This document shows positions 4,543 through 58,568 of a stretch of DNA of 64,000 bases, in pieces. Below the pieces are notes generated by a model. That model worked only from the letters and a program-made list of their open reading frames with translations, was not told where the DNA came from and did not search any database. The translations under genes and the position numbers were made by a program. Source of the DNA: Alphaproteobacteria bacterium (GTDB taxonomy: Bacteria; Pseudomonadota; Alphaproteobacteria; UBA8366; CAVOAK01). Each line of letters opens with the position of its first letter. Position 1 is the stretch's first letter. Location of the stretch: assembly GCA_965217615.1 (NCBI GenBank), contig CBDCIT010000016.1:229272-293271 (forward strand). Direction: 5' to 3'.

Positions 4543-4601
4543 ACGACTTTCGAGCCTAGGAACGACCGCATATCCAGCTCGTGTGATGGTGCTGGTGCGC
4601 G

Positions 4602-34297: not shown

Positions 34298-34374
34298 CGG
34301 AGTGTAGCTCAGCCTGGTAGAGCACTGTCTTCGGGAGGCAGGGGCCGGTGGTTCGAATCCACTCACTCCGACCA
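34298..34374 (+). tRNA. tRNA-Pro (anticodon CGG), encoded CCA
   Basis: Acceptor CGGAGTG/CACTCCG, D-arm GCTCAGCCTGGTAGAGC, anticodon stem-loop CTGTC-TTCGGGA-GGCAG, T-arm GGTGGTTCGAATCCACT, A + CCA. Confidence 0.9.
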
Positions 34375-34472: not shown

Positions 34473-35312
34473 ATGCCCGTCATCTTCAACCAGGAAGACA
34501 TCGCCGCCGTCGAAGCGGGAGAAGGTGCGTTCGTTCAGACGCTGCTGGACGACAAGACGACGAGCAACGACAACGTCCGTCTGCAACGCTGGCGGATCCA
34601 GCCAGACGGATCGATGCCGGTGGCCGTCGCCAAAACCGACCTCACCTGGGTGCAAGTTCTCTCCGGTCATGTCGAGTTCGACGGCAGCGAGGGCCACCAT
34701 GTTCTTAGCGACGTCCATCTTGTGTTTCTACCACCGGGTTTCAGCGGATCGCTTGCCAGCGACACCGGCGCCGTCCTGCTTCATGCGGAAGTGCCTGACG
34801 CCGCGCGGTTTGATCCGACATTCGCCGACAATCCACCGCCATTTCACTGTGTCGACTGGACCGAGGAGCCCGTCCTAAACGCCGAGCATGACGCGCGCAA
34901 ACGCATCTATTTCGTAACACCGAAAATGTTCGGAACCAAGGCGCTCGCCGGCGAGTTGATCATCTATCCGCCGGGAACCGAGGCCTCGAACCATCACCAT
35001 GAGGGCGCCGAGCATTTCCAATACATCGTCAAGGGCAGCGGGACGGTGTTCTCGAACGAGGAGCCACGTGCAATACGCGCCAACGACGTGATCTATAACT
35101 ATGAGCGGGAACGCCATTACTTCCGCTGCAGTGACGACGAGGAAATGCTGTTCGTAGAGTTCTTCGTGCCCGGCGAGTTCAAGACGATTTGGGCCGATAA
35201 CGCGCCAATTTGTGCCTGGGTCCCCACCGGCAAGAATTTTAACGGCGGGACGCCCATCCGCGAGATCGCGGCGCACAGTTCCGAGGATGTAGCAAAACCG
35301 GCCGACGTTTAG
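34473..35312 (+). CDS. Bicupin-domain protein (unknown function)
   Basis: ORF trimmed to MPVIFNQED…. It has two cupin-like halves; the second carries a metal motif (PPGTEASNHHHEGAEHFQYIVKG). Confidence 0.65.
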   Translation: MPVIFNQEDIAAVEAGEGAFVQTLLDDKTTSNDNVRLQRWRIQPDGSMPVAVAKTDLTWVQVLSGHVEFDGSEGHHVLSDVHLVFLPPGFSGSLASDTGAVLLHAEVPDAARFDPTFADNPPPFHCVDWTEEPVLNAEHDARKRIYFVTPKMFGTKALAGELIIYPPGTEASNHHHEGAEHFQYIVKGSGTVFSNEEPRAIRANDVIYNYERERHYFRCSDDEEMLFVEFFVPGEFKTIWADNAPICAWVPTGKNFNGGTPIREIAAHSSEDVAKPADV

Positions 35313-37654
35313 AGAGTCTGTGGCCTATTCAGCCGCCTATTAGGCGCATCACAGATCGCCCGCCAGATGCGTTCAGGCGTCGCCGGCATGTCGAAGTGAT
35401 CGATGCCAAGAGGCGCAAGTGCATCGACGACTGCATTGATGACTGCGGCCAGCGATCCGACCGTTCCCGACTCGCCCGCGCCCTTCACGCCCAACGGATT
35501 GGTTGCAGTCGGGACCGGGTTGGTTGCCATGTCGATCGAGCAGAGCGTTTCGGCGCGGGGCATCCCGTAATCAAGGAATGAGCCGGTTATGAGCTGGCCC
35601 GACTCGTCGTAGAGGATGGTCTCCGAAAGCGCCTGACCGACTCCCTGCGCGATACCGCCATGGATCTGGCCCTCAAGGAGAAGCGGATTGACGACCGTCC
35701 CGACATCGTCGACGACGCTGTAGCGGACGATTGTCAGCTCACCGGTTTCTTCGTCGATTTCCAGCTCACAGACGTGGCAACCGTTGGGAAAATTAACAAC
35801 TTCCGGTGAAAAAGTCGCGGTCTCACTGAAACCGGCCTCGACCCCGGGCGGCAGGTTTCGGCCGAGGAACGCCTGCCGCACGACATCGCCGAGAGCAACC
35901 GACCTGTCGGTTCCTGAAACGGAATATTCGCCCGCGGAGAAGACGACGTCGACTTCCGCAGCTTCAAGCAGGTGCGCGGCGAGTCGGCGACCCTTCTCGA
36001 CGATCTTGTCGGTTGCAAGGGATATCGCAGTGCCACCCGAGGTCATTGAGCGCGACCCCATCGTGCCGCTGCCAAGGGCGATCGCATCCGTATCGCCTTC
36101 CACGATGCGGACCGCCTCTGGCGACAATCCAAGGCGGCCGCAGACGAGCTGCCGATACACCGTATCGTGGCCCTGTCCGTGAGAGATCGTGCCCACCAAT
36201 ACGGTTAGCGAACCACCCGGATCGAAACGGACCTCCGCCGATTCCAAGCCAAAGCCCGCCTGCTCAATGGTATTGGAAACGCCAATCCCTCGCAGCTTAC
36301 CTCGGCCTTTCGCTTCATTCCGGCGTGCCTCGAATTCCGCGTAGTCCGCCATCGCCAGGGCGTCGTCCAGATTTTTTTCAAACGCGCCAGAGTCATAGGT
36401 GAAGGTGAGTGCCGTCTTATATGGCATTGCCTCCGCTGGAATCGTATTGCGTCGGCGGAGATCAATCCTGTCTACCCCCATTTCGACGGCAGCAAGATCG
36501 ATCAGCCGCTCAACAATGTAGGAGGCCTCAGGCCGGCCTGCACCGCGATAGGGCGCTGTCGAATTGGTGCTCGTGAATGCGCCTATCACTTCAACGTGGA
36601 TCGCCGGCGTCGTGTAGACACCGGCCAAGGATCCAAGATTTGAGATGCCGGGAACAGGGCCTTTCGAAGCGAGGTAGGCGCCTAAGTTGACGACCGTCGA
36701 CACCGTTAGCGCCAGGAACCGCCCGTTCGCGTCGAGCGCCAGCACCGCTTGGCTCAGGTTGTCGCGGGCATGGTTGTCGCTGGTGAACGCCTCGCTGCGG
36801 TCGCTGATCCATTTGACGGGCCGGCCAAGCCCCTTTGAGGCCCACAGCACGAGTATGAATTCAAGATAGGTGCCCCCTTTCATACCGAAGCTGCCGCCGA
36901 CGTCACCCGCTACGACACGGAACTTATGCTGCGGCAGAGCGAGGACGTTCTCGGCCAAGTCTTTGCGCACGCCGTGCGGCGCCTGCAGACCGGCATAGAG
37001 CGTGTAGCGCTCGTCATGTGCGTCGTACTGGCCGATGCATCCTCTAGGCTCCATCGTATTCGCGGAAACGCGGCTAATGGAAAATGTCCGCCGCGTGACA
37101 TGGGCGGCCCCGGCAATGCCCGCTTCTGCCGCCGTCTTGTCTCCCAATTCATGGCGAAAGCTGACGTTACCAGGACAGTCGTCCCAGATAAGCGGCGCGC
37201 CATCCTCGATCGCCTCGACCGCCGATGAAACAGGCTGCAACACCTCATAATCGATATCGACGAGATCCGCCGCGTCCCGCGCCGCGTTGAAACTCTCAGC
37301 GACGATGAAGGCAACCGGATCGCCCACATGGCGCACGGTTTCGGCCACGAGCGCGAACCGCGAGGTATGGAACATGACCTCACTGCCACGTCGAAGTCCG
37401 TCAATTTCGCAACGGAGCGGACCGATGCCGTCGGCGTGGAGATCGGCACCGGTAAGAACAGTGAGTACGCCCGGCGCGGATTGAGCCGATTCAACTTCGA
37501 TCGAGCGAATGCGGGCGTGCGCGTGAGGCGAGCGCAGAACAAAGCCGTGGGCTAGTTGAGGCAGCGAGACATCGTCGAGAAAGCGGCCCCGACCTCTGAG
37601 GAGACGAGGATCCCCGGTCCGTGCAACGCCTTGTCCAACCGCAAATCGTTCCAT
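35309..37654 (-). CDS. Molybdopterin-binding large subunit of a xanthine dehydrogenase/CoxL (form II-like) family hydroxylase
   Basis: 781 aa. N-terminal a/b-hammerhead (…GFVLRSPHAHARIRSIEV…) and active-site loop …APYRGAGRPEASY…. No small or medium subunit genes are adjacent. Confidence 0.85.
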   Translation of the reverse strand: MERFAVGQGVARTGDPRLLRGRGRFLDDVSLPQLAHGFVLRSPHAHARIRSIEVESAQSAPGVLTVLTGADLHADGIGPLRCEIDGLRRGSEVMFHTSRFALVAETVRHVGDPVAFIVAESFNAARDAADLVDIDYEVLQPVSSAVEAIEDGAPLIWDDCPGNVSFRHELGDKTAAEAGIAGAAHVTRRTFSISRVSANTMEPRGCIGQYDAHDERYTLYAGLQAPHGVRKDLAENVLALPQHKFRVVAGDVGGSFGMKGGTYLEFILVLWASKGLGRPVKWISDRSEAFTSDNHARDNLSQAVLALDANGRFLALTVSTVVNLGAYLASKGPVPGISNLGSLAGVYTTPAIHVEVIGAFTSTNSTAPYRGAGRPEASYIVERLIDLAAVEMGVDRIDLRRRNTIPAEAMPYKTALTFTYDSGAFEKNLDDALAMADYAEFEARRNEAKGRGKLRGIGVSNTIEQAGFGLESAEVRFDPGGSLTVLVGTISHGQGHDTVYRQLVCGRLGLSPEAVRIVEGDTDAIALGSGTMGSRSMTSGGTAISLATDKIVEKGRRLAAHLLEAAEVDVVFSAGEYSVSGTDRSVALGDVVRQAFLGRNLPPGVEAGFSETATFSPEVVNFPNGCHVCELEIDEETGELTIVRYSVVDDVGTVVNPLLLEGQIHGGIAQGVGQALSETILYDESGQLITGSFLDYGMPRAETLCSIDMATNPVPTATNPLGVKGAGESGTVGSLAAVINAVVDALAPLGIDHFDMPATPERIWRAICDAPNRRLNRPQTL

Positions 37655-37905
37655 TCTCCACCCGCCTCTACCCGAGAGATATCGTTTCGGCCTACCGCAG
37701 ATCGCGCATTCGATACGCCCCGCTGGTCATTAGTCTGTATAGCTGACGGTGACAAGACCCGCCACGCTCGTCCAGGCGATCTCGGACGATAAGCGGCTTG
37801 CCCCCTTATTCGGAATTTGCAACAAGAGGTTACGGTCGCAAAGTGACCGGCACGAACAAGGCCACACGCTATGCTAGGTGGTCAAAGACTTCGGGGAGCT
37901 ACGTG

Positions 37906-38823
37906 ATGCGTCTTGTCGTTCATGGACAACAGGCCTTCGGTAAATCGGTGCTGGAGGCGCTGCTCGAACGCGGTGAGGAGATCATCGCCGTCTACGTCGC
38001 TCCGGAGAAGGAAGGACAGCGCGCCGACCCCCTCAAGGAAGCGGCGCTCGCGCATGATCTACCGGTTTGCCAGCCCGACACGTACAAAGACCCAGCCGTT
38101 TGGGAGCAGTTCATTGAGTTGCGTCCCGACCTTTGCGTGATGGCCTTCGTCACCCTGTTTGTACCCGAGGAGTTTCTCGATATCCCAACCCGCGGAACGA
38201 TCCAGTACCACCCTTCGCTGCTGCCCCTGCACCGTGGCCCGAGCTCGATCAACTGGCCGATTATAGAGGGTGATAAGAAAACCGGGCTCTCCATCTTCTG
38301 GCCGGACAACGGCCTCGATACCGGCCCGATCCTGTTGCAGAAAGAGGTCGAGATCGGCGACGACGACACGCTCGGCAGCATTTATTTCGACAAGCTTTTT
38401 CCAATGGGTGTGGAGGCCATGCTGGAGGCCGTCAATCTGGTCAAGGCTGGAGGCGCGCCGCGTAATATGCAAGATGATTCACAGGCCACTTACGAGAGTT
38501 GGTGCTCCGCAGAACAGGTCGAAATCGATTGGAGCTATCCAGCCGGCGAAACTTACAATCTGATCCGCGGCGCCGATCCCCAACCCGGCGCCTGGACCAT
38601 GCACGATGGTGAGAGATTGCAGGTCTATGCAGCCCGGCTCCTGCCAGCCAAGCAGGGCAACGCACCAGGCACGGTCACCGAGCTAACCGACGACGGGATC
38701 GTTGTCGCAGTACCCGATGGCCAAATCCTGGTCACGCGCGTACGGCCCGCCAGTGGCAAGAAGGTCGCGGCACCCGAATTCGTCGCGGTGAGCGGCCTCA
38801 GCGTCGGCACGCAGCTCGGCTAG
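37906..38823 (+). CDS. Formyltransferase (Fmt/ArnA-N/FDH-N-like, with C-terminal Fmt_C-like domain)
   Basis: MRLVVHGQQAFG…, catalytic HPSLLPLHRGPSSINW…D motif. SD GGGGAG upstream of the ATG at 37906. Confidence 0.8.
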   Translation: MRLVVHGQQAFGKSVLEALLERGEEIIAVYVAPEKEGQRADPLKEAALAHDLPVCQPDTYKDPAVWEQFIELRPDLCVMAFVTLFVPEEFLDIPTRGTIQYHPSLLPLHRGPSSINWPIIEGDKKTGLSIFWPDNGLDTGPILLQKEVEIGDDDTLGSIYFDKLFPMGVEAMLEAVNLVKAGGAPRNMQDDSQATYESWCSAEQVEIDWSYPAGETYNLIRGADPQPGAWTMHDGERLQVYAARLLPAKQGNAPGTVTELTDDGIVVAVPDGQILVTRVRPASGKKVAAPEFVAVSGLSVGTQLG

Positions 38824-38869
38824 GGCGCAAAGCAGGCCACGATACGCTGAAGATCAAAGGGAGAAGAGC

Positions 38870-40135
38870 ATGAGCGAGGTCTACGAGGGCACTACGAAAG
38901 CGAACCAGGAGGCGTTCAAGCGGCTGGACGATTCGGAGCCGATCTTGGAAGACGTGCTGCCCGCCATCGACACGCTTCCCGGCATGACCGAGAACACCAT
39001 TCTCGCCGCGGGCCCGACCATGCCATGGCCCGACTATGTCGGCGGCCAACGCGACGGCATCATCGGTGGGGCTCTGTTCGAAGGGCTCGCCTCAGATCGC
39101 GACGACGCTATCGCCAAGCTCGACGCCGGCGAGATCGTCGTCGCCGGAGCGCATGACTTTGGCGCGCTTGGCTCGCTTGCCGGCATCTATACGGCCTCGA
39201 TGCCGGTCTTCGTCGTGCGCAACGCCAAATACGGCAATCTCGGCCACTGCAACTTCTACGAAGGCACCAACCCGCGCCGCCTCAACTACGGCGTCTATGA
39301 CGACGGCGTGCGCGACCGTCTGAATTACATCCACGAGGTCGTCGCACCGGTGATCCGTGATGCCATCCGGCTCGCCGAGGGTATCCCGTTGAAGCCGGTA
39401 ATGCGGCGCGCACTCCACATGGGCGACGAGCTGCACAGCCGCAATACGGCGGCCTCGCTGCTGCTATTGCGCGACTTGGTGCCGCATCTGATCGCCGTCA
39501 CCGAGAAGCAACGCGACAGCGTGGAGAAGACCGTCGAGGCGCTGACCGAAGACCACTATTTCTTCCTGCGCCTGTCGCTCGCGTCTGCCAAAGCGGTGGC
39601 CGATGCCGCCCACGGCGTCGAAGGATCGAGCGTCGTCTCGGGTATGTGCCTCAACTGCAAGGAGTTCGCGATTCGCGTCAGCGGCCTTGGCGACAAGAAC
39701 GCCTGGTTCCGCGGCGATCAGGCCTCGGTCGAGCCGAAGCTGTTCCCCGGCCACACTGAAGACGAGATCACCTGGATGGGCGGCGACAGCGCGATTGCCG
39801 AAACCACGGGTCTCGGCGGCTTTGCGCAGGCCGCGGCCTTCCCGCTGCAGAACTACCAGGGCGAGCCCGACGTCATGGTCAAGCGCAACCTCTCGCTCTA
39901 CGACATCGTCGTCGGCGAGAACAGCGAGTACCGCATCCCCTACCTGAAGTATCGCGGCACGCCGACCGGCGTCGATATCTTCAAGGTGGTTGCCACCGGT
40001 ACGGTGCCAGTTCTGGACATGGGCATCGGCGGAAAGGACGGCGGCCAGATCGGCGCCGGAATTGTCAGCGTACCGATGAACTGCTTCACCAAGGCGGTCG
40101 AGGCGTTCGAGTCGCAGTACGGCAAGGCCTCGTAA
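38870..40135 (+). CDS. DUF1116 (YlbE/AllG-like) protein
   Basis: 421 aa. …ILAAGPTMPWPDYVGGQRDGIIGGALFEG…GHCNFYEG…HMGDELHSRNTAAS…; resemblance to the YlbE family is from memory. Confidence 0.65.
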   Translation: MSEVYEGTTKANQEAFKRLDDSEPILEDVLPAIDTLPGMTENTILAAGPTMPWPDYVGGQRDGIIGGALFEGLASDRDDAIAKLDAGEIVVAGAHDFGALGSLAGIYTASMPVFVVRNAKYGNLGHCNFYEGTNPRRLNYGVYDDGVRDRLNYIHEVVAPVIRDAIRLAEGIPLKPVMRRALHMGDELHSRNTAASLLLLRDLVPHLIAVTEKQRDSVEKTVEALTEDHYFFLRLSLASAKAVADAAHGVEGSSVVSGMCLNCKEFAIRVSGLGDKNAWFRGDQASVEPKLFPGHTEDEITWMGGDSAIAETTGLGGFAQAAAFPLQNYQGEPDVMVKRNLSLYDIVVGENSEYRIPYLKYRGTPTGVDIFKVVATGTVPVLDMGIGGKDGGQIGAGIVSVPMNCFTKAVEAFESQYGKAS

Positions 40136-40179
40136 CGCGCTGCAGGCGCTGGTGCCGGTCGCAGCGATCGGAGACGAGG

Positions 40180-41562
40180 TTGGCAAACCTCCCGGACGAT
40201 CCAATTGCGGCTGACGGTATCAGGGGCTACGGCCGCCGCCTACGGCGTAACGAGATCACCGCCGAAGAAACGGTTCGCGCCTATCTGGCGCGTATCGAAG
40301 CGCTCGATCCGAGTCTTGGCGCCTACCAGCACGTTGGCGGCGAGCAGGCACTCTCCGCGGCCCAGGCCATCGACGCGCAGCTCGCCGCTGGAACCGATCT
40401 CGGGCCGCTGATGGGAATCCCCGTTGCCGTCAAGGACCTGCTCGCGGTCGACGGCATGCCGACCACCGCCGGATCGCAGATCGACGTCAGCGACTTGGTC
40501 GGTGCCGAAGGCAGCTTCGTCAAATCGCTTCGCGCCGCAGGCTGCATCATTCTCGGCAAGACCAAGGCGGTCGAGTTCGGCCTTGGCGCCGTCGGCATCA
40601 GTGCCGCCCGCGGCACACCCTGGAACCCGTGGGACGCCACGATGCATCGCATCCCCGGCGGCTCGAGCAGCGGCTCGGGTGTCGCCATGGCCGCCGGCCT
40701 CTGTAGCTTCGCCATCGGCTCGGACACTGGCGGTTCGGTGCGTATTCCGGCCGCGCTGAACGGCACCTTCGGCCTCAAGACCACGGTCGGCCTGTGGGCG
40801 ACCGACGGCGTCATGCCGCTCGCCCCGACGCTCGACTCGATCGGACTGCTGACCGCCTCGGCAGAAGATGCGGCGATTGCTTTCGCCGCCCTGACCGGGC
40901 AAACGGAGCCCGAAGCCGCTTCGCTCGACGGTCTCAGACTTGGACAACCGTCCGACTATTTCTTCGACGATCTGGAGGCGGAGGTCGAGGCCTGCACGAC
41001 GGCGGCGCTCGACAAGCTGACCGCGGACGGTGCTACTGTCACATCGATTTCCGTGCCCGAGGCAGCCGAGCGCGAGCAAATCATGCCGGTCGTCATTCCG
41101 ACCGAGCTCAACGCTGTGCTGGGTCCTGAGCGCATTAAAGCCAACCGCGACAAGATGGACCCGGTCATTGCCGCCCGTGCGATCGCCGCCGCCGATAACC
41201 TCGCCACCGACTACATCCGCTGCATCTGGCGTCAGCGCGAGCTCATCGAGATCGCCCGCCAACGCATGCGGGAGCTCGACGCCTGGGTGTCACCGACGGT
41301 CGCTACCTTGCCCGCACCGGTCGCCGCCTTCGACGATTTCGATGCGGGCTTGGCGATGGCCTTCTCTATTACCCGCAATACCCAACCCGGAAACGTCTTC
41401 GACCAGGCCAGCGTCTCCCTGCCGATCGGCGGCGGACCGTTGTCGGTCGGCCTGCAAGTGATGTGCAACCCCGGCGAGGACGCGAAGGTGCTCGCCATCG
41501 CACTGGCGATTGAGCAAGCGCTCGGTCGCGGCTCGCGGCCGGACTTGACGGCGTTTCTTTGA
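40180..41562 (+). CDS. Amidase-signature family amidase
   Basis: GGSSSGSGVAMAAGLCSFAIGSDTGGSVRIPAALNG signature. TTG start preceded by GGAGACGAGG. Confidence 0.85.
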   Translation: MANLPDDPIAADGIRGYGRRLRRNEITAEETVRAYLARIEALDPSLGAYQHVGGEQALSAAQAIDAQLAAGTDLGPLMGIPVAVKDLLAVDGMPTTAGSQIDVSDLVGAEGSFVKSLRAAGCIILGKTKAVEFGLGAVGISAARGTPWNPWDATMHRIPGGSSSGSGVAMAAGLCSFAIGSDTGGSVRIPAALNGTFGLKTTVGLWATDGVMPLAPTLDSIGLLTASAEDAAIAFAALTGQTEPEAASLDGLRLGQPSDYFFDDLEAEVEACTTAALDKLTADGATVTSISVPEAAEREQIMPVVIPTELNAVLGPERIKANRDKMDPVIAARAIAAADNLATDYIRCIWRQRELIEIARQRMRELDAWVSPTVATLPAPVAAFDDFDAGLAMAFSITRNTQPGNVFDQASVSLPIGGGPLSVGLQVMCNPGEDAKVLAIALAIEQALGRGSRPDLTAFL

Positions 41563-41619: not shown

Positions 41620-41775
41620 GACACGTTCTCGGGGCGGGGTGAAAGTCCCCACCGGCGGTAAGAGCGACGGTCGCTCAAGCCCGCGAGCGCTCTTCGGGTG
41701 CATGCCTGAAGAGGACAGCAGATTCGGTGTGATTCCGAAGCCGACGGTGATAGTCCGGACGGGAGAGAACGAGAG
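41620..41775 (+). promoter_or_regulatory. FMN riboswitch (RFN element) upstream of ribH
   Basis: CGTTCTCGGGGCGGGGTGAAAGTCCCCACCGGCGGTAA…AGCCCGCGAGCG…CAGCAGATTCGGTGTGATTCCGAAGCCGACGGTGATAGTCCGGACGGGAGAGAACG matches the conserved RFN core. Confidence 0.9.
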
Positions 41776-41854: not shown

Positions 41855-42334
41855 ATGAATCAGATGTCCACGAAAAATCCCAATGGGTTCCGTGTTGCCG
41901 TCGTAAAGGCGCGTTGGCACGCGGATATTGTCGATCAGTGCCACGAGGCTTTCGTAACCGAAATTGCCTGCCTGACCAAACGTCGAGCAGATGTTGACGA
42001 GTTCGATGTTCCGGGCGCCTTCGAGGTCCCTTTGATGGCGCGCCGTCTGGCCAAATCGGGAAAGTACGTCGCCATCCTAGGCATCGCATTTGTCGTCGAT
42101 GGCGGCATCTATCGCCACGAGTTCGTCGCGGAAGCCGTCGTCGGCGGGCTCATGCAGGCTCAGTTGGACACCGACGTTCCGATTCTGTCGGCTGTCCTGG
42201 TCCCGCAGAAGTTCGACGAGAGCGAGGAACGCCAGCGTTACTTTCGCGACCACTTCAAAATCAAAGGCCGGGAGGCCGCAGAGGCCTGCGTCTCGATCTT
42301 GGATGCGCGCGCAGCGATCAGCGCTGTAGCCTGA
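41855..42334 (+). CDS. ribH: 6,7-dimethyl-8-ribityllumazine synthase (RibH2-type)
   Basis: 159 aa. …[15 protein letters not shown]…[42 protein letters not shown]…. Confidence 0.9.
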
Positions 42335-42357: not shown

Positions 42358-43359
42358 CTAGATCTCCAGAACCAGCTTGCCGATGTGTGTGCTCGCCTGC
42401 ATTACCTCGTGGGCGTCCGCCGCCTTGGCCAGCGGGTATCGGGCATGGATCACGGGTTTGACCTTGCCGGCCTCGATCAATGGCCAGACGTTTGCCCGTA
42501 GCGCATCGGCGATCGCTTTCTTGAACTCGACCGATCGCGCCCGCAAGGTCGAGCCGGTAAGCGTTGCCCGCTTGACCATGACAAGCGGATAATTGAATTC
42601 GGCCGTTGCCCCGCCAAGAGTGGCAATGGTGACGACCCGTCCATCGACGGCGAGCGCCTGCAGGTTGCGTCCGACATAAGCGCCGGCGACAACGTCGAGG
42701 ATGACGTCGACGCCAGCACCGCCGGTCGCCTCGGTCACGATCTCGGCGAAATCCTCGTCGTTGTAATTGATCGCCCGCTCGGCGCCGAGCTCCTCGCAGG
42801 CCTTACACTTCTCTGCCGTGCCTGCAGTGGCAAACACACGCGCGCCGAAGTTGGCGGCGAGTTGGATCGCGGTTGTGCCAATGCCGCTCGAGCCGCCATG
42901 CACCAGAAAGTTCTCGCCCGATTTCAGGCCGACACGGTCGAAAACGTTGCTCCAGACCGTAAAGAAGGTCTCCGGCAGTGCTGCCGCCTCGCCTATGTCG
43001 AGACCCTTTGGCACCTGCAGACAAACCTCGGCCGCGGCCGGGCAGTATTCGGCGTAGCCGCCGCCGGTCACCAGTGCGCAGACTTCGTCGCCAACGCTCC
43101 AGCCGCTTGCGCCGGGTCCGAGCGCAACGACCGTGCCGGCGATGTCGAGACCGAGGATGTCCGAAGCGTCGGGTGGCACGGGGTAACTGCCGAGGCGCTG
43201 GAACAGATCGAGCCGGTTGGCGCTGGTTGCGGCGACCTTGACCAACACTTCGCCCTCTTGCGGCTGCGGTGTCGGACGGTCCACGAGTTCCAACGTGTTG
43301 TTCTTGCCGGGATTTTGAATCTCGATCGCTTTCATTGTTGCTGGAACGGCATCCGCCAT
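42358..43359 (-). CDS. NAD(P)H:quinone oxidoreductase (MDR/PIG3-like)
   Basis: …GGGYAEY…ENFLVHGGSSGIGTTAIQLA…. Confidence 0.85.
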   Translation of the reverse strand: MADAVPATMKAIEIQNPGKNNTLELVDRPTPQPQEGEVLVKVAATSANRLDLFQRLGSYPVPPDASDILGLDIAGTVVALGPGASGWSVGDEVCALVTGGGYAEYCPAAAEVCLQVPKGLDIGEAAALPETFFTVWSNVFDRVGLKSGENFLVHGGSSGIGTTAIQLAANFGARVFATAGTAEKCKACEELGAERAINYNDEDFAEIVTEATGGAGVDVILDVVAGAYVGRNLQALAVDGRVVTIATLGGATAEFNYPLVMVKRATLTGSTLRARSVEFKKAIADALRANVWPLIEAGKVKPVIHARYPLAKAADAHEVMQASTHIGKLVLEI

Positions 43360-43416
43360 TTAACCCTCCTGATTGTCATGGTTCGAAATATCAGCCGTAG
43401 CTCGACGATTTGAGCT

Positions 43417-44511
43417 TCACGCCGCCCTGGTCGGCCGGGACTTGTTCGATTTTGCCTTGTTAGATCGGGGCTTGTTGGACCGTGCGCGTGTTTGTTTTTT
43501 CAGCAGTCGCTCGATAACCCGCCGCGCGCGGAGTGGGCCTGCATCGTAGCGAATATCGATGGTCGGCGCGCCGGCACAGAGATCGATCGTCTTCTGCTGT
43601 GCGGTCAGCACGACGATATCCTCGTCGATGACCTGGCGCACCTGGCGATAAAATTCCTCGCGGACCTTGGCATCGGCCGTGATGCTGGCCCGATCGTGCG
43701 CCAGCCCCCAAAAATAGTGTGACGACCGGTCGTTCTCCGGAGTCACGCCGTGGCAGACGACAATGTTCCAGCGGTTCTTGCCGGGCTTGCCTTCGGGCGC
43801 ACCGGTGCCGGTGACCGCGCCGCCGGTCGTCACCACATGGAAGGCGGGCGGCGAGAAATCGATGAACTGCCAGCGATCGATATTCTCGCTAAACCCGCCG
43901 ATCTCCCGGTAAGTCCGCTGCGGCGGCGTATCGATCGTCCAGCGCCTGACGCGGACGTTGTCGCCGCTGTGCTCCACTTTCACCTCGGCCAAGTCCGCCA
44001 TCTCCGGTGAGCCCACGGTCGACCCATGGACGTAAGCAAGGTGCGAGAGGTCGAGCAGGTTGTCGTTGAGTAGAATGTAGTTGGCCGCGACGTGCGTATA
44101 GCCGGTCACCGCGTCCCACTTCTCATCGGCCAGCCAATGGAAGTCCGGGATCGCGGTTTCGTCGGCGAGTGCCGCCTCACCCATCCAGATCCAGGTGCAG
44201 CCGTGGCGGTCAACGGCCGGGTAGCTCTTGACGCGCGCATCCTTCGGCACTTTCGGTTGACCCGGCACTTTGATGCAGGCGCCCGAGCAATCGTAAAGAA
44301 GACCGTGATAGGCGCATTGAATCGTATCGCCAATAAGAGCGCCCTGGGAGAGCGGCAAACTGCGATGGACGCAGCGGTCTTCCAGCGCGACCGGCGTCCC
44401 GTCTTCCAGCCGGTAAAGAACGACCGGCTCGTTCAGAAAAACTCTTCCCGTCGGCGTGCGCCCGACCTCATCGGCCCAAGCCGCGATATACCAATAATTC
44501 CTAAGAAACAT
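43417..44511 (-). CDS. Rieske [2Fe-2S] non-haem iron oxygenase, VanA/phthalate-family oxygenase component
   Basis: MFLRNYWYIAAW…, Rieske CVHRSLPL…CAYHG. Catalytic domain with …LDLSHLAYVH…. Basic repetitive C-terminal tail RSNKPRSNKAKSNKSRP. Confidence 0.85.
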   Translation of the reverse strand: MFLRNYWYIAAWADEVGRTPTGRVFLNEPVVLYRLEDGTPVALEDRCVHRSLPLSQGALIGDTIQCAYHGLLYDCSGACIKVPGQPKVPKDARVKSYPAVDRHGCTWIWMGEAALADETAIPDFHWLADEKWDAVTGYTHVAANYILLNDNLLDLSHLAYVHGSTVGSPEMADLAEVKVEHSGDNVRVRRWTIDTPPQRTYREIGGFSENIDRWQFIDFSPPAFHVVTTGGAVTGTGAPEGKPGKNRWNIVVCHGVTPENDRSSHYFWGLAHDRASITADAKVREEFYRQVRQVIDEDIVVLTAQQKTIDLCAGAPTIDIRYDAGPLRARRVIERLLKKQTRARSNKPRSNKAKSNKSRPTRAA

Positions 44512-44526
44512 CAGACCGGCTCCGTT

Positions 44527-45969
44527 TCACGGACTCCTATGGGTTTCAGCCGTCAACTTCAAGACGCGGCGCTCTATTTCGCCCCTGCGCTCGAGGTGCG
44601 GCAACGCCAGGGTGTCGACGACCGCATCGCTGACGGCGAGGCCGAACGCGCGCCTCGCAGCCCGCTCGTTTGGGCCACCGTCGGGAAACTTGACGATCAC
44701 GTCGCTGGAGATGGTGGGAATTTGGCCTGTTTTATTGGGCGCCCGACGCGGCGGCCCCCTTCCCTTCTTCAGATCACGGATCGCGCGGCGAATCATGCGA
44801 CGCAGCATGGCAACGCCGATATCGGTCTGGCCCAAATGCTCAAGCTTGTGAAGCGCGATCGACCCTTGGCTGTGCATGACCTCATAGTCGCCCGGAACGC
44901 GCTGCGCCTCCTCGTAGCTGCGTGCGCCGGTCTGGCCGACGAAATCGACCCGGTTTGCCCCGACGGCAGTGCGGTCGCCCCTGCCCGCAAGATCGAGCTC
45001 GTCGTTATAGTGTCGCCAGCCAATGAGGACGCAGTGCATATCGTCGACCGGCACAACCCACGCGGTGATGGCGGCGCGCGTAAACATCTTCTCACGGTCG
45101 GGGTCCTGCCAGAGGTCCGGTGGCTGGAACAGATTGGGTAGAACGATCCCCAGATGGCGGACCCAGACATGCTCATGCCAACGCCGGCAGTTGACGACAT
45201 AGATCCCGGTATTATCGTCGGTCTGGCGCCAGGCAAGTTCCGGCAGCTCGCCCCAAGCGTCTGCGAACTGGGTCCCGGTCACGCGCGTGTGCAGGAAGAC
45301 GCTGTGGATCGGATCTATGGGCTGCTCCTGGACTTGCAGCCAGTTGCATGGATTTTCCACCGTGTAGGGCACCAACTCGTCGCCGGGCAGGTCCATCGTG
45401 TCGTAAACGGGAAATTCGGGCTTTTCGGCAGGCGGACCCAGATAGGCGAAGACGAGCCCTTTGTATTCGAGCGCCGGGTAGGCGCCGTGGTGCAGGCTAT
45501 CCTTGATCGGGCTGTTCTCGGGCTCGCCGGGTGTTTCCAAGATCCGGCCATCCACATCGAACAGCCAGCCGTGATAGCAGCAGCGAATGCCATGCTCGGC
45601 GATCACACCGTACTCCAAGGAGGTGCGGCGATGACTGCATTGCCGGTGCAAGAGCCCGACGTTTCCCGAGAGGTCGCGGAAGGCGACCAAATCCTCGCCC
45701 ATGATGCGGAGCGCCAAAGGCAGTTCGGTCAACTGCTCCGCCATGCAGACGGGCTGCCAAAAGCGGCGCAGATATTCACCGCACGGCGTCCCCGGCCCGA
45801 CATGGGTCAGCTCGGCGTCTTCCTTCGCTCCGCCCGAACGGTGATAACCGATATACGACATGTGGCCCTTTGCCAGCCTCTGCTCCCTCCGTTCGTCCTT
45901 GAATGTGACGATAGCGCGGGCCTGGGTACATGGGAAGCACTCCACCGCCATGCTCGTATTCTGCGCCAT
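44527..45969 (-). CDS. Rieske [2Fe-2S] oxygenase alpha-subunit-like protein (start 45969 or 45861)
   Basis: CSHRRTSL…CCYHGW Rieske motif, …DPIHSVFLH… mononuclear-iron region. Confidence 0.8.
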   Translation of the reverse strand: MAQNTSMAVECFPCTQARAIVTFKDERREQRLAKGHMSYIGYHRSGGAKEDAELTHVGPGTPCGEYLRRFWQPVCMAEQLTELPLALRIMGEDLVAFRDLSGNVGLLHRQCSHRRTSLEYGVIAEHGIRCCYHGWLFDVDGRILETPGEPENSPIKDSLHHGAYPALEYKGLVFAYLGPPAEKPEFPVYDTMDLPGDELVPYTVENPCNWLQVQEQPIDPIHSVFLHTRVTGTQFADAWGELPELAWRQTDDNTGIYVVNCRRWHEHVWVRHLGIVLPNLFQPPDLWQDPDREKMFTRAAITAWVVPVDDMHCVLIGWRHYNDELDLAGRGDRTAVGANRVDFVGQTGARSYEEAQRVPGDYEVMHSQGSIALHKLEHLGQTDIGVAMLRRMIRRAIRDLKKGRGPPRRAPNKTGQIPTISSDVIVKFPDGGPNERAARRAFGLAVSDAVVDTLALPHLERRGEIERRVLKLTAETHRSP

Positions 45970-48391: not shown

Positions 48392-50155
48392 TTACCGATT
48401 GAGGGTTCGCTTCCAATCTCTTCGCAGGGGCCGAAGCCAGATGTCCTTCCTGGGCTTGTCGTAGAGCTTGTCCCGGTCGTAGCGTCCGCGTCCCTGGGTG
48501 GTCCCGACATGGATCCAGCCGGAGGCTCTGTAGACGGCTCCGGTGTAGCGGGGCGTCTCGACGAAAGTCTCGATGAGCACGGGCGTTGTGTTGTAGCGCT
48601 CGGTCCAGTCCTCGGGCAGGCGCCGGCGGATGATGGCGAGGATGTGCGAGCCCAGGTTGGGGATATTGATCCAGGGCAGGGTGCAGCGAGACTAGCTGCT
48701 GTACTTGCGGGTGAGAGTCCCGTCGGCGCAATTCTCAGTTTAGCGCCGTAGTGATATCCGGCAGGCATGCGGGGCGACCCGGTGGTCTGAAAGCCCGGAA
48801 GTAAAAGCCCCGGAGGGCCGGAGGGTCGTAGTGCCTCTCAGGTCTGGTCAGTTCGGTGGGGCGAGCGAACAGTAGGGCCGTAACGAAAGTGAACGGATTA
48901 AGCGTCGAAAATCATGTCCTGCATGAAGCTGATTTGCGGGGTAAACGGAGCTGCCAAGGGTTTCCTGCCTATCCGATGGCCAGTGCCGGTGCGGAAGAAC
49001 TGAGGCGCACGCATCGGGGCTCCCGGCGTATTGAAGGCGGCAATACTGGACAGTACAGCAGTGAAAGTCCGGAAGGTGTGGAGGTCAGACAGGATGATCC
49101 TTGGATGTCAAAGACCGTGTCTATAACTGGCTGTGCCGGGAAATGAGACGGAGATCTCCAGACTGGCGGATGAGGTCGTCAAGCGTTGATGGGCGGGACA
49201 ACATAACCCGGCTGGAGCGAGGACCTCAGGGCTCAGGTGGCAGTGCTGCTACCGTATGGTCCGCACACAGAGGCGGACGGTCTTCAAGGCGGTCGGCACG
49301 GTCTAAGGACGGAGCAAACGAGGGCTGTGGTCAGGAGAATGGCTGGGTCGACCTTAACCCTGACGCGTCCGCGGAAGGCTCCACTCCGAACTGTGAGGTG
49401 CCTGATGCTTGAAGCCGGACCGGGGAAAACCCGATGTCCGGAATTTTAGGGGGGGCGGCTGGAAACGTGGCCTATGGTGGAACTGTGAACCCACCCCGCA
49501 ACCGAAAGGGCGGGGCTGGAAACCCTCCACCTACCGGTGCGCGCGCCAGTGCCCTACCCGACATCAGGAACCGCGGGTTATCGACCATGAGGGGCAGGTT
49601 CTTCTCGCGTAGTTGCGGCGTCCACCCGATGAAGGTGTCGCGCGGTGCGAGCTTCCAGGCGGCGGTTGAGAAGCCGAGCATGGCGACGGGCCAGCCGTCG
49701 CGGTCGTGGACGGCGTAGCGCATCTGGGCGCCGACCAGGGTCCTGTAGCCGAGATAGTGGTAGCGGGCGATGAACTCGTTCCACAGCTTGCCCTCCCGGG
49801 TGCCGCGCACGACGGGCCGCAGGGTGAGCGGACGGACCTCGTCGAGGGTTGTCGGCGTCGGGAACAGCGGCGGTTCGGTGTCCGGTCCGAAGACGATGGG
49901 CTTGGGCCGGTTCTGCCGTCCCTGCTTCGGCGGCAGAACGATGAGGCCGTCGCGGTGCATATCGAGCATGGTGACCCTGGCCATCATGTCCTTGAGGCCG
50001 CCGTCGGGCTTGAACCAGCCGATGCGCCGGCAGAACGCCTTCGACAGGCGATGGCGGTTCAGCGCCGGAGGGCCGGCGATCAGGGCGCGCAGCAGCGCCA
50101 TCTCTTCGGCGGTGAAGTCGCGGCCGTAATAGCGGCACTCGACGGCGCCGGTCAT
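48392..50155 (-). pseudogene. DUF4338-domain gene, interrupted by an 882-nt insertion (exon-like parts 50155..49563 and 48680..48392)
   Basis: N-part: MTGAVECRYYGRDFTAEEM…NEFIARYHYLGYRTLVGAQMRYAV…WKLAPRDTFIGWTPQLREKNLPLMVDNPRFL. C-part: LPWINIPNLGSHILAIIRRRLPEDWTERYNTTPVLIETFVETPRYTGAVYRASGWIHVGTTQGRGRYD…. The parts sum to 882 nt (293 codons) in one frame. Confidence 0.85.
48681..49562 (+). mobile_element. ORF-less structured insertion, putative group II intron-like retroelement (antisense to DUF4338)
   Basis: No TSD. Starts GTGCAG and ends CCCTACCCGAC. GNRA-type loops occur only on the + strand. A D5-like hairpin lies at 49413..49441. A G7 tract (49449..49455) can pair with CCCUACCC (49552..49559), leaving A49556 bulged 7 nt from the 3' end. 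CCTGCC (48964..48969) complements the 6 nt (GGCAGG) preceding the insertion. See findings for caveats. Confidence 0.5.
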
Positions 50156-52578
50156 CCCGGCGCCGTCAGGGCGAGCCTGTGTTCCTCGTTCATCGACCAT
50201 GGCAGCCAAGGCGACAGGTCGTCCGGCGGTCGACGGCCATTCTTCGCGCATTCTTCCAGCCACGCTTCAAGCCAGCGCAGGACATCGATGCCGTTTAACG
50301 CGAGGGTGCCCACCACCGAGTACATCATGGCCGTGAACCGGGCGCCGGTCTCGCTGTCGGAGCCGAACGACAGGCGTCTTCCGATCGCTGGCCCTCTGAG
50401 CATCCTTTCGGCGAGATTGTTGTCCATCGGCACCAGCGGGCGGTCGACGAAGACGCTCAGCCCCTCGCGATGGTTGATGAGCGAGCGCAGGGCCTTGCCC
50501 TCGCGCGCCTCGTCGGGCAGGCCGGCGAGCTCCCGTTCGGCCTGCGCGAACAGGCCGTCGAGCGTCTCCTCCAGCGCGCCCTGTGCCGTGTCGAACGCCG
50601 ACGTCTGGCGCTCAAGCTCGGCGCCGTAATGCTCCAGCCGCGCCTCGTTCAGGCGGTAGATCGACGCGATCCGCTCGATCCATCCCCGGCACCATTCCGT
50701 CAGGCTGACCTGGCCGGCCGCGCACTCGATAAAATCGCGCCGTTGATGAGACCAACAGAACGCAAGGGTCACCAGCCCCCCGCGAAGGCGAGCGAGCCGC
50801 TTGTAGGCGCTATAGCGGTCGCAGACGATGACCGTGTGGAGGAGGGCCGCCGCGAACAGCTTCTCCGCCGCTTCGGCGCTGCGCGAAGGGTCGATATAGA
50901 AGTAGACGGCATCGCTGCTGACCGAGGTCCACAGCCAGGCGCGGCTCGACCGGTCTTCCCCGCGAAGCTCTTGCACGCGCCAGCTGGTTTCGTCCGCATG
51001 GCGCAGCGCCGCCTTGTCCTGGTGCGCGAGGATCGCCCCGGCGACTGGCTCGAACAGTGGCACGAAGCGGAGCATGCTGTCGGCGAGCGTCCCGGGAGAG
51101 ATCGGCAGCCCCCGGTCGGACAGCCACGCGGCGACCCGCTTGAGCGGGCGGTAGCAGGCATAGCGTTCGAACAGGACGCAGGCCCACACGCTGATTCCGT
51201 AGGGCGTGTTGCGGAACAACCGCGGCACCGGGGGCGCCGACACTTCGATCGGCGACGACGCGCAGCCGCAGGCCCGGCGCCAGCGCGGACGGCGGATCAC
51301 ACGCTTGTGGGCCTTGACGTCGATCTCGACGAGCGGGGAGATATCGGCGCCGATCGCCGCATAGGGCTTGCCGCAACAGGAGCACACACGCGCCTCCTTC
51401 GGCGGGTTGATCTCCTCCTCGCGCTCCTCGAGCCCGGGCCGTCGGGTACGGCCATGGCCTGGGGCGCCGCGCTGCTGGCCGCGCGGGCGTCCGGAGCGCG
51501 GCGTCTCCTGCTTCTCGCTCTTTCGGCCGAACAGCGCCTTCGACAGCACCGCCCCGGTCGCGCGAAGCCTGGCAAGCTGCGCTTCCAGCGTCTGGATCCG
51601 ATTCCACGACGCCTTCGCGCCCTTGCGCAGCCGGGCGTTCTCCCTGGACAGCGATTTGATCGTGGCCTTCTGGCACCGAGATCTCCGCAACGCCCTGCGC
51701 AGTTCGGCATCCGCAATGGACAGCGTCTTCGACAGCGTCTTCCTGACCGCTCGAAGCCCGGCAAGCTCGGACTCAAGCGCCTTTCTGATTGCACGAAGTT
51801 TGGCAGGCTGAACCTCCAGCGACGCTTGCCGCCTCTCCAACTTCCGCACGGTCCTGCGCAGCCGCGCCTTCAATTTGTCTTTTTGGGCCTCGGACACGTT
51901 CAGAGCAACGCGCAGCCGGTAGCCCTCGCCGGACAAGGATTTCACCGCGTCCTTCTGGTCGCGCAGTCGCCTCAGTTCCGCAACGAGACGAACGATCTCG
52001 CGGTTCTGCGATCCGATCGTCTGCTTGTGGGTTTCCGCGCCCTGCAAATCCTTGCGCAACTCACGGACCTCGTACTCCAGCAACCCGGCCTTCTCCGCCC
52101 GGGCCTGCGCCACCTTCAGAGCCTTGCGCAGCTGGTTTACCTCCGTGAGCGACACAACCGGGGGCTGCCTGGCGGCCTCGATGCGGGATTCCGAAGGCCG
52201 CTGCTCAAACCGCGTCACTTCCGCCTTCGATGATTGCGCGGCCTTCACCGCGCGACGCAGTTCCTTCACCTCGACGCGGGACGCCTCCAGCTTGCCCCGA
52301 CAGCTGTCGAGCTGCCACTTGAAAGAACCCGCCCGGGAACGAGCATCCACATCTGACCGGCGCAGCTCTTCACAGCGTGCTTCGGCCGCGTCCGCCCGCG
52401 CCCGTTCCCGCTCCGCACGGGCGTGCTGCCGCTCGTACAGCGAACGCCAGTCGCGCGGCTGCTGCTCCAGCACGGACGCAGGGAACGACCAACCTGCATC
52501 GTTACCATCGGCCTGCGTCAGCGCTACGCCAATATCTTCGTCGAGAACCGCCATGCGCTCGACGATAGCCCATGGCAA
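50152..52578 (-). CDS. IS66-family transposase with unusually long N-terminal coiled-coil region (808 aa)
   Basis: C-terminal ~470 aa have the canonical IS66 TnpC layout (CSCCGKPY zinc-ribbon region, …RHADETSWRV…, …CWSHQRRDF…, …PMDNNLAERMLR…). The N-terminal ~340 aa are Arg/Leu/Ala/Lys-rich heptad-like repeats. Confidence 0.9.
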   Translation of the reverse strand: MPWAIVERMAVLDEDIGVALTQADGNDAGWSFPASVLEQQPRDWRSLYERQHARAERERARADAAEARCEELRRSDVDARSRAGSFKWQLDSCRGKLEASRVEVKELRRAVKAAQSSKAEVTRFEQRPSESRIEAARQPPVVSLTEVNQLRKALKVAQARAEKAGLLEYEVRELRKDLQGAETHKQTIGSQNREIVRLVAELRRLRDQKDAVKSLSGEGYRLRVALNVSEAQKDKLKARLRRTVRKLERRQASLEVQPAKLRAIRKALESELAGLRAVRKTLSKTLSIADAELRRALRRSRCQKATIKSLSRENARLRKGAKASWNRIQTLEAQLARLRATGAVLSKALFGRKSEKQETPRSGRPRGQQRGAPGHGRTRRPGLEEREEEINPPKEARVCSCCGKPYAAIGADISPLVEIDVKAHKRVIRRPRWRRACGCASSPIEVSAPPVPRLFRNTPYGISVWACVLFERYACYRPLKRVAAWLSDRGLPISPGTLADSMLRFVPLFEPVAGAILAHQDKAALRHADETSWRVQELRGEDRSSRAWLWTSVSSDAVYFYIDPSRSAEAAEKLFAAALLHTVIVCDRYSAYKRLARLRGGLVTLAFCWSHQRRDFIECAAGQVSLTEWCRGWIERIASIYRLNEARLEHYGAELERQTSAFDTAQGALEETLDGLFAQAERELAGLPDEAREGKALRSLINHREGLSVFVDRPLVPMDNNLAERMLRGPAIGRRLSFGSDSETGARFTAMMYSVVGTLALNGIDVLRWLEAWLEECAKNGRRPPDDLSPWLPWSMNEEHRLALTAPG

Positions 52579-57515: not shown

Positions 57516-58568
57516 GAGCATTTTCGGATCAATCCGGCTTGTAACCCGAGTTTGTAAAATAGTTGGCGCATTCACTGGGGGTGAAGGCATCGAGCGCTGT
57601 CGCGATGGCGGCCTCGAGTGTGTCGATGGTTCTTGCGGCGGCTTTTCGCAAGAGCGCCTTGAGCTTTGCGAAGACCTGCTCGATCGGATTGAAGTCCGGC
57701 GAGTAGGGCGGGAGGAACATCAGTGTCGCTCCGGTCCGTTCGATTGCCGCCCGGGCGTCCGCGGCCTTGTGGGCGGGGAGATTGTCCATGATCACGATGT
57801 CGCCGGGGTTCAGCGTCGGCGCGAGGAGGGTCTCGGCATAGGCGGTGAAACCCTCTCCGTTCATGGCGCCGTCGATGACCATGGGGGCGGTCAGGCCGTC
57901 GAGGCGCAGGCCCGCGACCAGCGTCGTGGTTTTCCAATGGCCATGCGGCAGCGCGGCACGGCAGCGGTTGCCGCGCGGGGCGCGCCCACGCAGGCGGGAC
58001 ATCTTTGTGGTTGCGCCAGTCTCGTCGAGGAACACCAGCCTTGTCGGATCGAGATCTGGCTGAAGGGTGAACCAAGCCTCGCGCCGGATTCTCACATCCT
58101 CGCGCTCTTGTTCGCTGGCGTGGGCAGTCTTTTTTTAAACGTCACCTCGTGGCGGCGGTAGAAAGCGTGGAGTGTGCTGATTGCAAAGCTCTCGCCCCGC
58201 TCGGCGATTAGCTTCTCGCGCAGTTCCATCAACGTGATGTCAGGTGTCTCCTCAATGGCGCGCATCAGAAGATCAGCCTGCGCCTCGATCCGGCCGGAAC
58301 GGCGGTCGCCGCCGCGCGGCTTCGGCGCCGTCCGCCCGCACCGCAAATATTCATCCATCCAGCGCACCGCGCTGGCGATGCTGACACCGAACCGCCTGGC
58401 CGCCCCGTTGCGCGACATCCCGCCTTCAATCGCGCCGATCACCCTGATGCGAAGATCTTCTGATAGATACTGAGCCATGCATGCTGACCTCCTACCCAGC
58501 ATGCAGTTTGAATCACAAAATTGACGGCCTGTGAATCCCTCGCGATTCATTCAGACACGGAAATGCTC
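57516..58568 (-). mobile_element. IS630-family element (1053 bp) with TA target duplication
   Basis: Termini GAGCATTT(C/T)CG… inverted. Flanked by TA at 57514..57515 and 58569..58570. Two overlapping transposase ORFs. Confidence 0.9.
57529..58478 (-). CDS. IS630-family transposase, expressed via -1 frameshift/slippage at an A7 run (about 58130..58136)
   Basis: Orf[41 protein letters not shown]… (HTH) ends shortly after TTTAAAAAAAG. The -1 frame continues …[39 protein letters not shown]…DNLPAHK…[12 protein letters not shown] (DDE). Confidence 0.8.

Follow-up and report, generated by a model that had tools for sequence, protein, structure and literature searches.

What connects five adjoining genes, each of a recognizable family, in the genome of an alphaproteobacterium? 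The window analyzed here, i.e., the whole stretch of 64,000 nt (64 kb) from contig CBDCIT010000016.1 of Alphaproteobacteria bacterium (GCA_965217615.1), contains at positions 34473-41562 five open reading frames (ORFs) which encode a cupin or "bicupin" protein, a CoxL-like large subunit of a molybdenum (Mo) hydroxylase, an enzyme acting on formyl-tetrahydrofolate (formyl-THF), an AllG-like protein of the DUF1116 family and an amidase-signature hydrolase (Table 1). An earlier note on this DNA had described them as uncharacterized genes of one catabolic unit. The five ORFs agree with this description and their identities are supported in each case by Pfam domains. Since none of the five reaches an NCBIfam equivalog cut-off, the label "uncharacterized" is fair. 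There is also no described pathway with this combination of genes, and literature searches on DUF1116, on formyl-coenzyme A (formyl-CoA) with enzymes related to 10-formyl-THF dehydrogenase (FDH), on orphan CoxL proteins and on clusters of glutamine-synthetase-like and Rieske genes returned nothing on these arrangements. The single catabolic unit is the part of the description that finds no support. The reading that we favor, tentatively and at somewhat under an even chance, is that the region is a lineage-specific mosaic which contains a small conserved module of two genes, encoding the formyl-THF enzyme and the AllG-like protein, and not one pathway.

Co-occurrence across genomes fails for three of the five genes: the bicupin (78 loci), the CoxL-like gene (5/5 genomes) and the amidase (missing in 2/6 relatives). 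The full gene set has been found only where the DUF1116 protein is at least 90% identical to that of the window (L001, L003/L004, L005, L006 and L007, L numbers denoting fetched loci), all of these carriers belonging to a narrow group of uncultured Alphaproteobacteria. Even inside this group, the amidase gene is missing in L005 and L006 and split in L001, and the bicupin gene is missing in L007. Moreover, in close relatives the flanking genes encoding a TPR protein, a DUF924 protein and a polyprenyl synthase show the same degree of synteny as the cluster, and synteny among these close relatives is therefore uninformative on function. In one metagenome-assembled genome (MAG; CAXXSU01), the whole cluster is present twice, on contigs 3 and 11 (L003 and L004), with equal identities to the window; one of the two contigs is 17 kb long and the other 412 kb. 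Such a pair may reflect a true duplication of the cluster, strain variation or a duplicate made by the assembly.

The only association retained by this neighborhood comparison is the one between the formyltransferase gene and the DUF1116 gene, at nine loci of one clade. At these loci, the two genes are always on the same strand, with the formyltransferase gene immediately upstream. In a group sharing 72% identity, the pair and its spacer of ~45 nt are kept and all other neighbors differ. A neighbor-joining tree placed every formyltransferase-linked DUF1116 protein in one clade, including that of L008, in which the formyltransferase gene is convergent. The short spacers reported for the window were correctly read, with 46 nt between the formyltransferase and DUF1116 genes and 44 nt between the DUF1116 and amidase genes, as was the 4-nt overlap (35309-35312) of the convergent 3' ends of the bicupin and CoxL-like genes.

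The comparison rests on a scan of one genome per species, which returned 385 relatives of the DUF1116 protein; 78 loci were kept, all from MAGs, the hosts being mostly uncultured Alphaproteobacteria, Acidiferrobacterales and Woeseiaceae. Genes in the fetched loci were called with a codon log-odds caller trained on the window genes. Longest-ORF callers and callers based on third-position GC content (GC3) were rejected, as antisense ORFs displaced genes and DUF1116 was lost in 20-39 loci.

The second member of the pair shares 34% identity with Escherichia coli AllG and matches the PDB entry 3CLQ with 285 bits. Of the 148 residues which are invariant in its subfamily, E. coli AllG has 77, and two motifs, GDExHxR and GDSAIxET, also occur in 3CLQ. 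The AlphaFold2 model (pLDDT 81) has a fold that matches 3CLQ only. In E. coli, AllFGH forms the oxamic transcarbamylase which splits the ureido C–N bond of oxalurate, and its three subunits, AllF, AllG and AllH, are all needed and encoded in one operon (PMC11326118). The transcarbamylase reaction interconverts oxalurate plus Pi and oxamate plus carbamoyl phosphate. The absence of the usual FdrA and YlbF partners, remarked on in the earlier note, extends well beyond the window: tblastn searches with E. coli AllF/FdrA, AllH/YlbF, AllK, AllE and AllC returned no match in the window, nor in 81 DUF1116 loci totaling ~1.4 Mb (E≤1e-3), and the AllG query matched all 81. This stand-alone subfamily has thousands of members and is 60-70% conserved between Alpha- and Gammaproteobacteria. 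Within four genes of DUF1116, in 72 loci, the commonest neighbors are type III glutamine synthetases (33), TetR regulators (23) and Rieske oxygenases (23). A possible Cys127 nucleophile was considered and dropped; all members of the subfamily and E. coli AllG have this cysteine, but Enterococcus faecalis 3CLQ has a threonine instead.

Several DUF1116 loci have features of their own. In the glutamine-synthetase-linked branch, the DUF1116 gene is found directly 3' of a gene encoding a GbcA-like Rieske oxygenase (L062 6419-8840, L044 8829-11230 and L073 4153-6655). The two genes overlap by 8 nt at one extreme and are 52 nt apart at the other, suggesting that the pair is co-translated. In L002/L010 (1-4259), at least nine tandem genes of the glutathione-dependent formaldehyde-activating enzyme (GFA) family precede a second DUF1116 copy and a Rieske oxygenase gene, and an aprAB-sat sulfur cluster follows downstream. 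Finally, in L014, L020, L029 and L036 (cluster c29), which are of the Defluviicoccus type discussed below, an ORF of ~730 aa resembling a translation factor is located just downstream of DUF1116; by eye, it looks like the selenocysteine elongation factor SelB.

The first member of the pair had been called an Fmt/ArnA-like formyltransferase. Its Formyl_trans domains stand, but the protein resembles the N-terminal domain of FDH more closely, matching it with 213 bits (4QPD), versus 164 bits or less for Fmt and 111 bits for ArnA among PDB entries. Its histidine (in YHPSLLP) and aspartate (in GLDTGPI) align with His106 and Asp142 of FDH. An identity as Fmt was rejected (TIGR00460, 166.6 for an equivalog cut-off of 201.5), and so was an identity as ArnA (NF005998, 131.9 for a cut-off of 777), the protein lacking a dehydrogenase domain and arn genes being absent from its vicinity. 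The N-terminal domain of FDH moves a formyl group between 10-formyl-THF and a phosphopantetheine thiol. Relatives of the window enzyme at 65-70% identity are found in three contexts: in an oxalate cluster, next to an ATP sulfurylase gene and, in this clade only, next to DUF1116. In the oxalate context, which occurs in two lineages including SAR324, the gene is located between those of a formyl-CoA transferase and a formate-THF ligase, with the oxalyl-CoA decarboxylase gene upstream. The similar identity in all contexts suggests that the members of this family share one conserved activity on formyl-THF. The oxalate context, together with the chemistry of the FDH domain, further suggests that formyl groups may be exchanged between THF and a thiol or CoA ester, and the family is a candidate formyl-CoA/THF formyltransferase in oxalate metabolism. 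Three loci (L084 4651-10704, L085 3727-9780 and L089 2151-7858), one of them from a SAR324 MAG, have the order GntR regulator, oxalyl-CoA decarboxylase, formyl-CoA transferase, a 70% relative of the formyl enzyme and formate-THF ligase.

On this basis, a mechanism can be proposed for the conserved core, which would be a two-gene operon encoding an FDH-N-terminal-type formyl-THF enzyme and a stand-alone AllG-like DUF1116 protein, and to which this lineage would have added an amidase-signature hydrolase. The DUF1116 protein would bind an N-acyl amide, i.e., a formyl, carbamoyl or oxalyl derivative, and break its C–N bond, in a step paralleling that of AllG in the oxamic transcarbamylase, minus AllF and AllH. 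The N-formylated or carbamoylated amide suggested in the earlier note is a reasonable candidate for this substrate. The FDH-like enzyme would then use its His/Asp pair to move the released formyl group to or from THF, possibly through a thiol or a CoA ester. Lastly, the amidase would hydrolyze the remaining primary amide to an acid and ammonia. Overall, nitrogen would be released and a one-carbon (C1) unit captured in the folate pool. This proposed three-step chemistry is consistent with the family relationships of the three enzymes. The CoxL-like and bicupin genes would be neighbors by local history, downstream of the tRNA-Pro gene.

The amidase carries the motifs GGSSSGS and GSDTGGSVRIPA and the lysine of AVKD. 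Orthologues have been found in L001, L004 and L007, in addition to the window; an M19 peptidase gene takes this place in L005, and nothing is found there in L006. The L001 orthologue (3919-5393) is split in two ORFs of 110 aa and 370 aa, maybe by a frameshift or a sequencing error, or as a pseudogene. An apparent distant recurrence of the amidase at L062 was set aside as a generic family member (29% identity only).

The CoxL-like protein possesses an APYRGAGRPE loop and the GAGE glutamate motif, and is under every NCBIfam equivalog cut-off. Its best PDB matches are CoxL (8UEM), quinoline 2-oxidoreductase (1T3Q) and 6-hydroxypseudooxynicotine dehydrogenase. In form I CoxL, the loop reads (A/S)YRCS(F/L)R (PMC13240472), and by this criterion the sequence of the window protein is not that of a CO dehydrogenase. 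The orphan status of this subunit, also claimed earlier, extends over the 64 kb: the CoxS-type cysteine motif is absent from all frames, and tblastn searches with genuine CoxS and CoxM sequences from fetched loci gave chance matches only (E≥0.16), whereas in other loci the same queries gave matches with E-values of 1e-34 to 1e-139. The protein has abundant relatives at 57-61% identity; five distant genomes carrying them have no S or M gene within ±8 kb (5/5), and their neighbors are unrelated from genome to genome (5/5). This clade is characteristically solitary wherever sampled, and its members presumably borrow small and medium subunits encoded elsewhere. In two of the five cases, CoxL-like genes form tandem L-L pairs (L083 5565-10328 and L091 5561-10355), and no gene for a small or medium subunit lies within 8 kb of them.

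The metal-binding "bicupin" of the earlier note is confirmed in part. The C-terminal cupin alone passes the Pfam threshold and carries a metal motif, HHHxGAEH, whereas the N-terminal half lacks such a motif and resembles a cupin no more than weakly (Pirin_C_2, E=0.013, below the cut-off). The longest ORF begins at TTG 34413, and the length of the protein is compatible with a two-barrel protein; a bicupin architecture with a single metal site is plausible. The protein has no NCBIfam match at 1e-5. It belongs to a rare family, with 233 representatives at E≤1e-3 among 1.84 billion. The metagenome scan was performed with a 7-sequence alignment, a 19-sequence alignment being too divergent. Among the 80 bicupin loci obtained, only two (82% identity) keep the synteny with the TPR and CoxL genes; the other 78 (47-64% identity) have diverse neighbors and no CoxL, DUF1116, Fmt-like or amidase gene adjoining. 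Two identities were rejected for this protein: AllE, the ureidoglycine aminohydrolase, as tblastn found no similarity to E. coli AllE and no NCBIfam model matched, TIGR03214 included, and oxalate decarboxylase, as the similarity to OxdC is weak and confined to one domain.

Concerning the organization of the locus, ATG 37906 is the favored start of the formyl enzyme gene, with a GGGGAG ribosome-binding site 7 nt upstream and all homologues being 303-306 aa long; the divergent intergenic region between the CoxL-like and formyl enzyme genes is therefore 251 bp. An alignment of this region from six relatives revealed a near-invariant block, GCTTGCCC..TATTCGGAATTTGCAACAAGAGG, located some 70-110 nt before the start of the formyl enzyme gene, which holds a short ATTC-G-GAAT inverted repeat and occurs once in the window. 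Its 19-nt core has an exact match in five of the 173 fetched loci, which represent four distinct relatives (L001, L003/L004, L005 and L007); L006, which differs at two core positions, is left out of this count. The block has no match in Rfam; it could function as a promoter, as an operator or as part of a leader. A promoter scan of the locus was uninformative, with no sigma-70-like promoter found and terminator-like sites below the shuffled-sequence count.

Several observations weigh against a dedicated two-gene module. Most DUF1116 loci (63/72) have no formyltransferase gene nearby and have type III glutamine synthetase, TetR and Rieske genes instead, which point to amine catabolism and not to formyl chemistry. 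Conversely, the formyl enzyme family is also found without DUF1116, e.g., adjoining ATP sulfurylase, and the enzyme may belong to general C1 housekeeping, its adjacency to DUF1116 being inherited from a single ancestral event. The fold of the DUF1116 protein brings no mechanistic clue, its sole match, 3CLQ, being itself of unknown function. In addition, families present in the window, namely Mo hydroxylase, cupin, quinone oxidoreductase and VanA-like Rieske oxygenase, are found again near DUF1116 in a second synteny group, of the Defluviicoccus type. In its ~10 loci, genes for CoxM, a CoxS-L fusion, a quinone oxidoreductase, a small cupin, a 2-hydroxyacid dehydrogenase, a TcuA-like flavoprotein and a VanA-like Rieske oxygenase are within ~8 kb of DUF1116, with TRZ/ATZ, M20 and allantoinase-like hydrolase genes nearby. 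In L056, DUF1116 is followed ~1 kb downstream by a 57% relative of the window CoxL. These recurrences are a weak signal of a wider functional link between DUF1116 and the hydroxylase, given few independent events and a second-group hydroxylase only 28-30% identical.

Such recurrences are among the arguments for assigning all five genes, perhaps with the quinone oxidoreductase and the two Rieske oxygenases, to one pathway for an N-heterocycle or an aromatic amide. The Mo hydroxylase would hydroxylate the ring, the cupin would cleave it and the three-gene unit would act on the resulting N-formyl amide; an analogy exists in pyridine-ring pathways, which yield N-formylmaleamate and then maleamate. 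Also in its favor are the control region, with its conserved block, shared by the two divergent halves of the locus, and the presence of CoxL-family genes within four genes of DUF1116 in 7/72 loci. We nevertheless consider it unlikely. The recurrences represent few independent events, the second-group hydroxylase has its own S and M subunits and is a different enzyme, the neighbors of the CoxL clade are unrelated in all five distant genomes, the bicupin orthologues of the 78 loci never adjoin the other four gene types, and the bicupin (L007) or the amidase (L005, L006) can be missing even in close relatives. The opposite explanation, which we also regard as improbable, is that the region contains no functional unit: the formyl enzyme would perform a housekeeping C1 reaction, e.g., as a 10-formyl-THF hydrolase, the other four proteins would act independently, and the adjacency would reflect shared ancestry together with a variable region next to tRNA-Pro. 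The persistence of the formyl enzyme family at 65-70% identity across differing contexts does suggest a context-independent activity, and its downstream neighbor is not constant, being the gene of a FIST protein, sat or DUF1116. Likewise, the formyltransferase-DUF1116 linkage is confined to a single clade, so that it counts as one event, and gene content after the tRNA differs among relatives. Against this, the pair and its ~45-nt spacer were retained while the surroundings changed between the 90%+ and 72% groups, in which the pair is at different genomic locations, and an operon would fit both the 44-46-nt spacers on one strand and the lack of any terminator-like site within them.

The remaining explanations concern the DUF1116 protein itself. 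It could be the normal AllG of an oxamic transcarbamylase, with AllF and AllH encoded elsewhere, in a locus devoted to oxalurate or ureide breakdown. The strong PF06545 match and the half of the invariant residues common to E. coli AllG speak for this, as do one synteny group with allantoinase-like (TIGR03178, 384 for a cut-off of 358), M20 and TRZ/ATZ genes a few kb from DUF1116, and the presence of formyl enzyme relatives in oxalate clusters, oxamate hydrolysis being expected to yield oxalate. However, AllF, AllH, AllK, AllE and AllC are undetectable in the 81 loci, the 34% identity to E. coli AllG goes with a long separating branch, and many of the invariant polar residues specific to the subfamily differ from AllG; in addition, E. 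coli needs all three subunits from one operon (PMC11326118). We judge this explanation very improbable. In a broader and more novel proposal, stand-alone DUF1116 proteins would be a new self-sufficient class of C–N-cleaving enzymes and, together with the FDH-like enzyme, would here pass a formyl or another C1 acyl group from an N-acyl amide directly to THF; the same formyl enzyme family would, in oxalate clusters, be an undescribed formyl-CoA:THF formyltransferase, and the CoxL-like proteins of the solitary clade might not depend on conventional S and M subunits. Taken as a whole, this proposal is quite unlikely. The two-gene module within a lineage-specific mosaic remains the reading that we prefer.

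On the left border of the region, tRNA-Pro also precedes the cluster in L004 (5454-5530), L006 (5365-5441), L007 (6251-6327), L094 and L095, and gene content 3' of it differs among relatives, L007 having no bicupin gene directly after the tRNA. A mobile island at tRNA-Pro was considered and rejected, with no integrase and no att-like repeat of the tRNA 3' end found. On the right, the amidase is the last gene of the three-gene unit, as the FMN (flavin mononucleotide) riboswitch that follows belongs to ribH and opens another unit. Further downstream, the quinone oxidoreductase gene and the Rieske pair (42358..45969) are syntenic with the cluster among close relatives and are a possible extended context for it.

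Table 1. Features of the five-gene region and of its borders, in window coordinates.
Feature	Position	Strand	Evidence	Remark
tRNA-Pro(CGG)	34298..34374	+	ARAGORN; Rfam tRNA, 61 bits	Conserved left border of the variable region
Rare cupin/bicupin protein, 279 aa from ATG 34473	34473..35312	+	Cupin_2, E=2e-12	
Solitary CoxL-like ("form II", AYRGAGR-type) Mo-hydroxylase large subunit, 781 aa	35309..37654	-	Ald_Xan_dh_C, MoCoBD_1 and MoCoBD_2, E down to 1e-78	
Near-invariant block of ~40 nt	37796..37835	+	Intergenic alignment of relatives	Candidate promoter/operator
Formyl-THF enzyme, FDH-N-terminal-like, 305 aa	37906..38823 (ORF 37798-38823)	+	Formyl_trans_N and Formyl_trans_C	
Stand-alone AllG-like DUF1116 protein, 421 aa	38870..40135	+	PF06545, E=6.8e-68, 228.8 bits vs cut-off 27	
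Amidase-signature hydrolase, 460 aa	40180..41562	+	Amidase, E=7e-83	Variable third gene of the unit
FMN riboswitch	41621..41774	+	Rfam RF00050, 114.5 bits, E=1.4e-26	
ribH, RibH2-type lumazine synthase	41855-42334		NF009084, 229.8 > cut-off 160	
PIG3-type quinone oxidoreductase	42358-43359	-	Pfam and NCBIfam	
VanA-like Rieske oxygenase	43417-44511	-	Pfam and NCBIfam	
LigXa-like Rieske oxygenase	44527-45969	-	Pfam and NCBIfam	

Elsewhere in the window, a formate-THF ligase gene (7817-9706, minus strand; PF01268, E=6e-266) is located 28 kb from the cluster and adjoins two DDE transposase genes (5375-7595). Together with this pair, IS66-family transposase and DDE_3 transposase fragments at 50152-52578 and 57529-58997 (both minus strand) amount to several insertion-sequence remnants.

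Overall, the locus is a moderately interesting annotation gap and not a discovery. It nonetheless draws attention to a large and conserved branch of the AllG/DUF1116 family which is encoded without AllF and AllH, although the sole characterized member needs both. Its carriers are abundant uncultured Alpha- and Gammaproteobacteria, represented by environmental metagenomes only, and its genomic company hints at a step of organic-nitrogen catabolism yet to be described. The placement of the formyl enzyme in oxalate clusters suggests a direct link between formyl-CoA and THF which, if true, would be relevant to research on one-carbon metabolism and to its engineering. A third testable lead is the existence of a whole clade of Mo-hydroxylase large subunits consistently encoded alone.

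Compared with known systems, the three proteins outside the conserved pair all resemble established families. The amidase shares the full-length domain and the intact Ser-cisSer-Lys signature of the amidase-signature family, which includes GatA, AtzE, allophanate hydrolase and malonamidase E2, and differs from the named subfamilies in scoring under all curated NCBIfam cut-offs; the best model is PRK07056 (307.9 for a cut-off of 447), followed by 284.1/532, 208.9/461, 206.5/481 and 191.2/487, the subfamilies tested being AtzE, allophanate hydrolase, GatA and indoleacetamide hydrolase. The C-terminal cupin is weakly similar to the C-terminal domain of the oxalate decarboxylase OxdC (PDB, E~1e-3) and has the HxH...E...H metal motif of metal-dependent bicupins such as OxdC and AllE; these differ from the window protein, in which the N-terminal half is devoid of this motif and whose family lacks conserved partners. 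With CoxL (8UEM), quinoline 2-oxidoreductase (1T3Q) and CO dehydrogenase (1N5W), the CoxL-like protein shares the three-domain large subunit. Unlike form I CoxL, it has no loop cysteine (TIGR02416, 555.8 vs a cut-off of 991), and whereas characterized Mo hydroxylases are encoded as L, S and M subunits, its gene has no adjacent S or M gene.

For the conserved pair, the closest comparisons are FDH and AllG. The N-terminal domain of FDH (ALDH1L1; 4QPD, 1S3I and 2BW0) is the best solved relative of the formyl enzyme, aligned over residues 1-289, and both have the same two-subdomain architecture and the same catalytic His/Asp residues. In contrast to FDH, the window protein stands alone, without the 4'-phosphopantetheine carrier and aldehyde-dehydrogenase domains. 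Similarly, AllG (YlbE) of E. coli AllFGH is encoded with partners, AllF/FdrA, AllH/DUF2877 and usually a carbamate kinase, which are not near the window DUF1116 or its relatives (81 loci); in this clade the latter are accompanied by a formyl-THF enzyme, and elsewhere in the subfamily by type III glutamine synthetase, TetR regulators and Rieske oxygenases. AllG and the window protein nevertheless belong to the same Pfam family, PF06545, have the same length of ~420 aa and both probably act on the C–N bond of an N-acyl amide.

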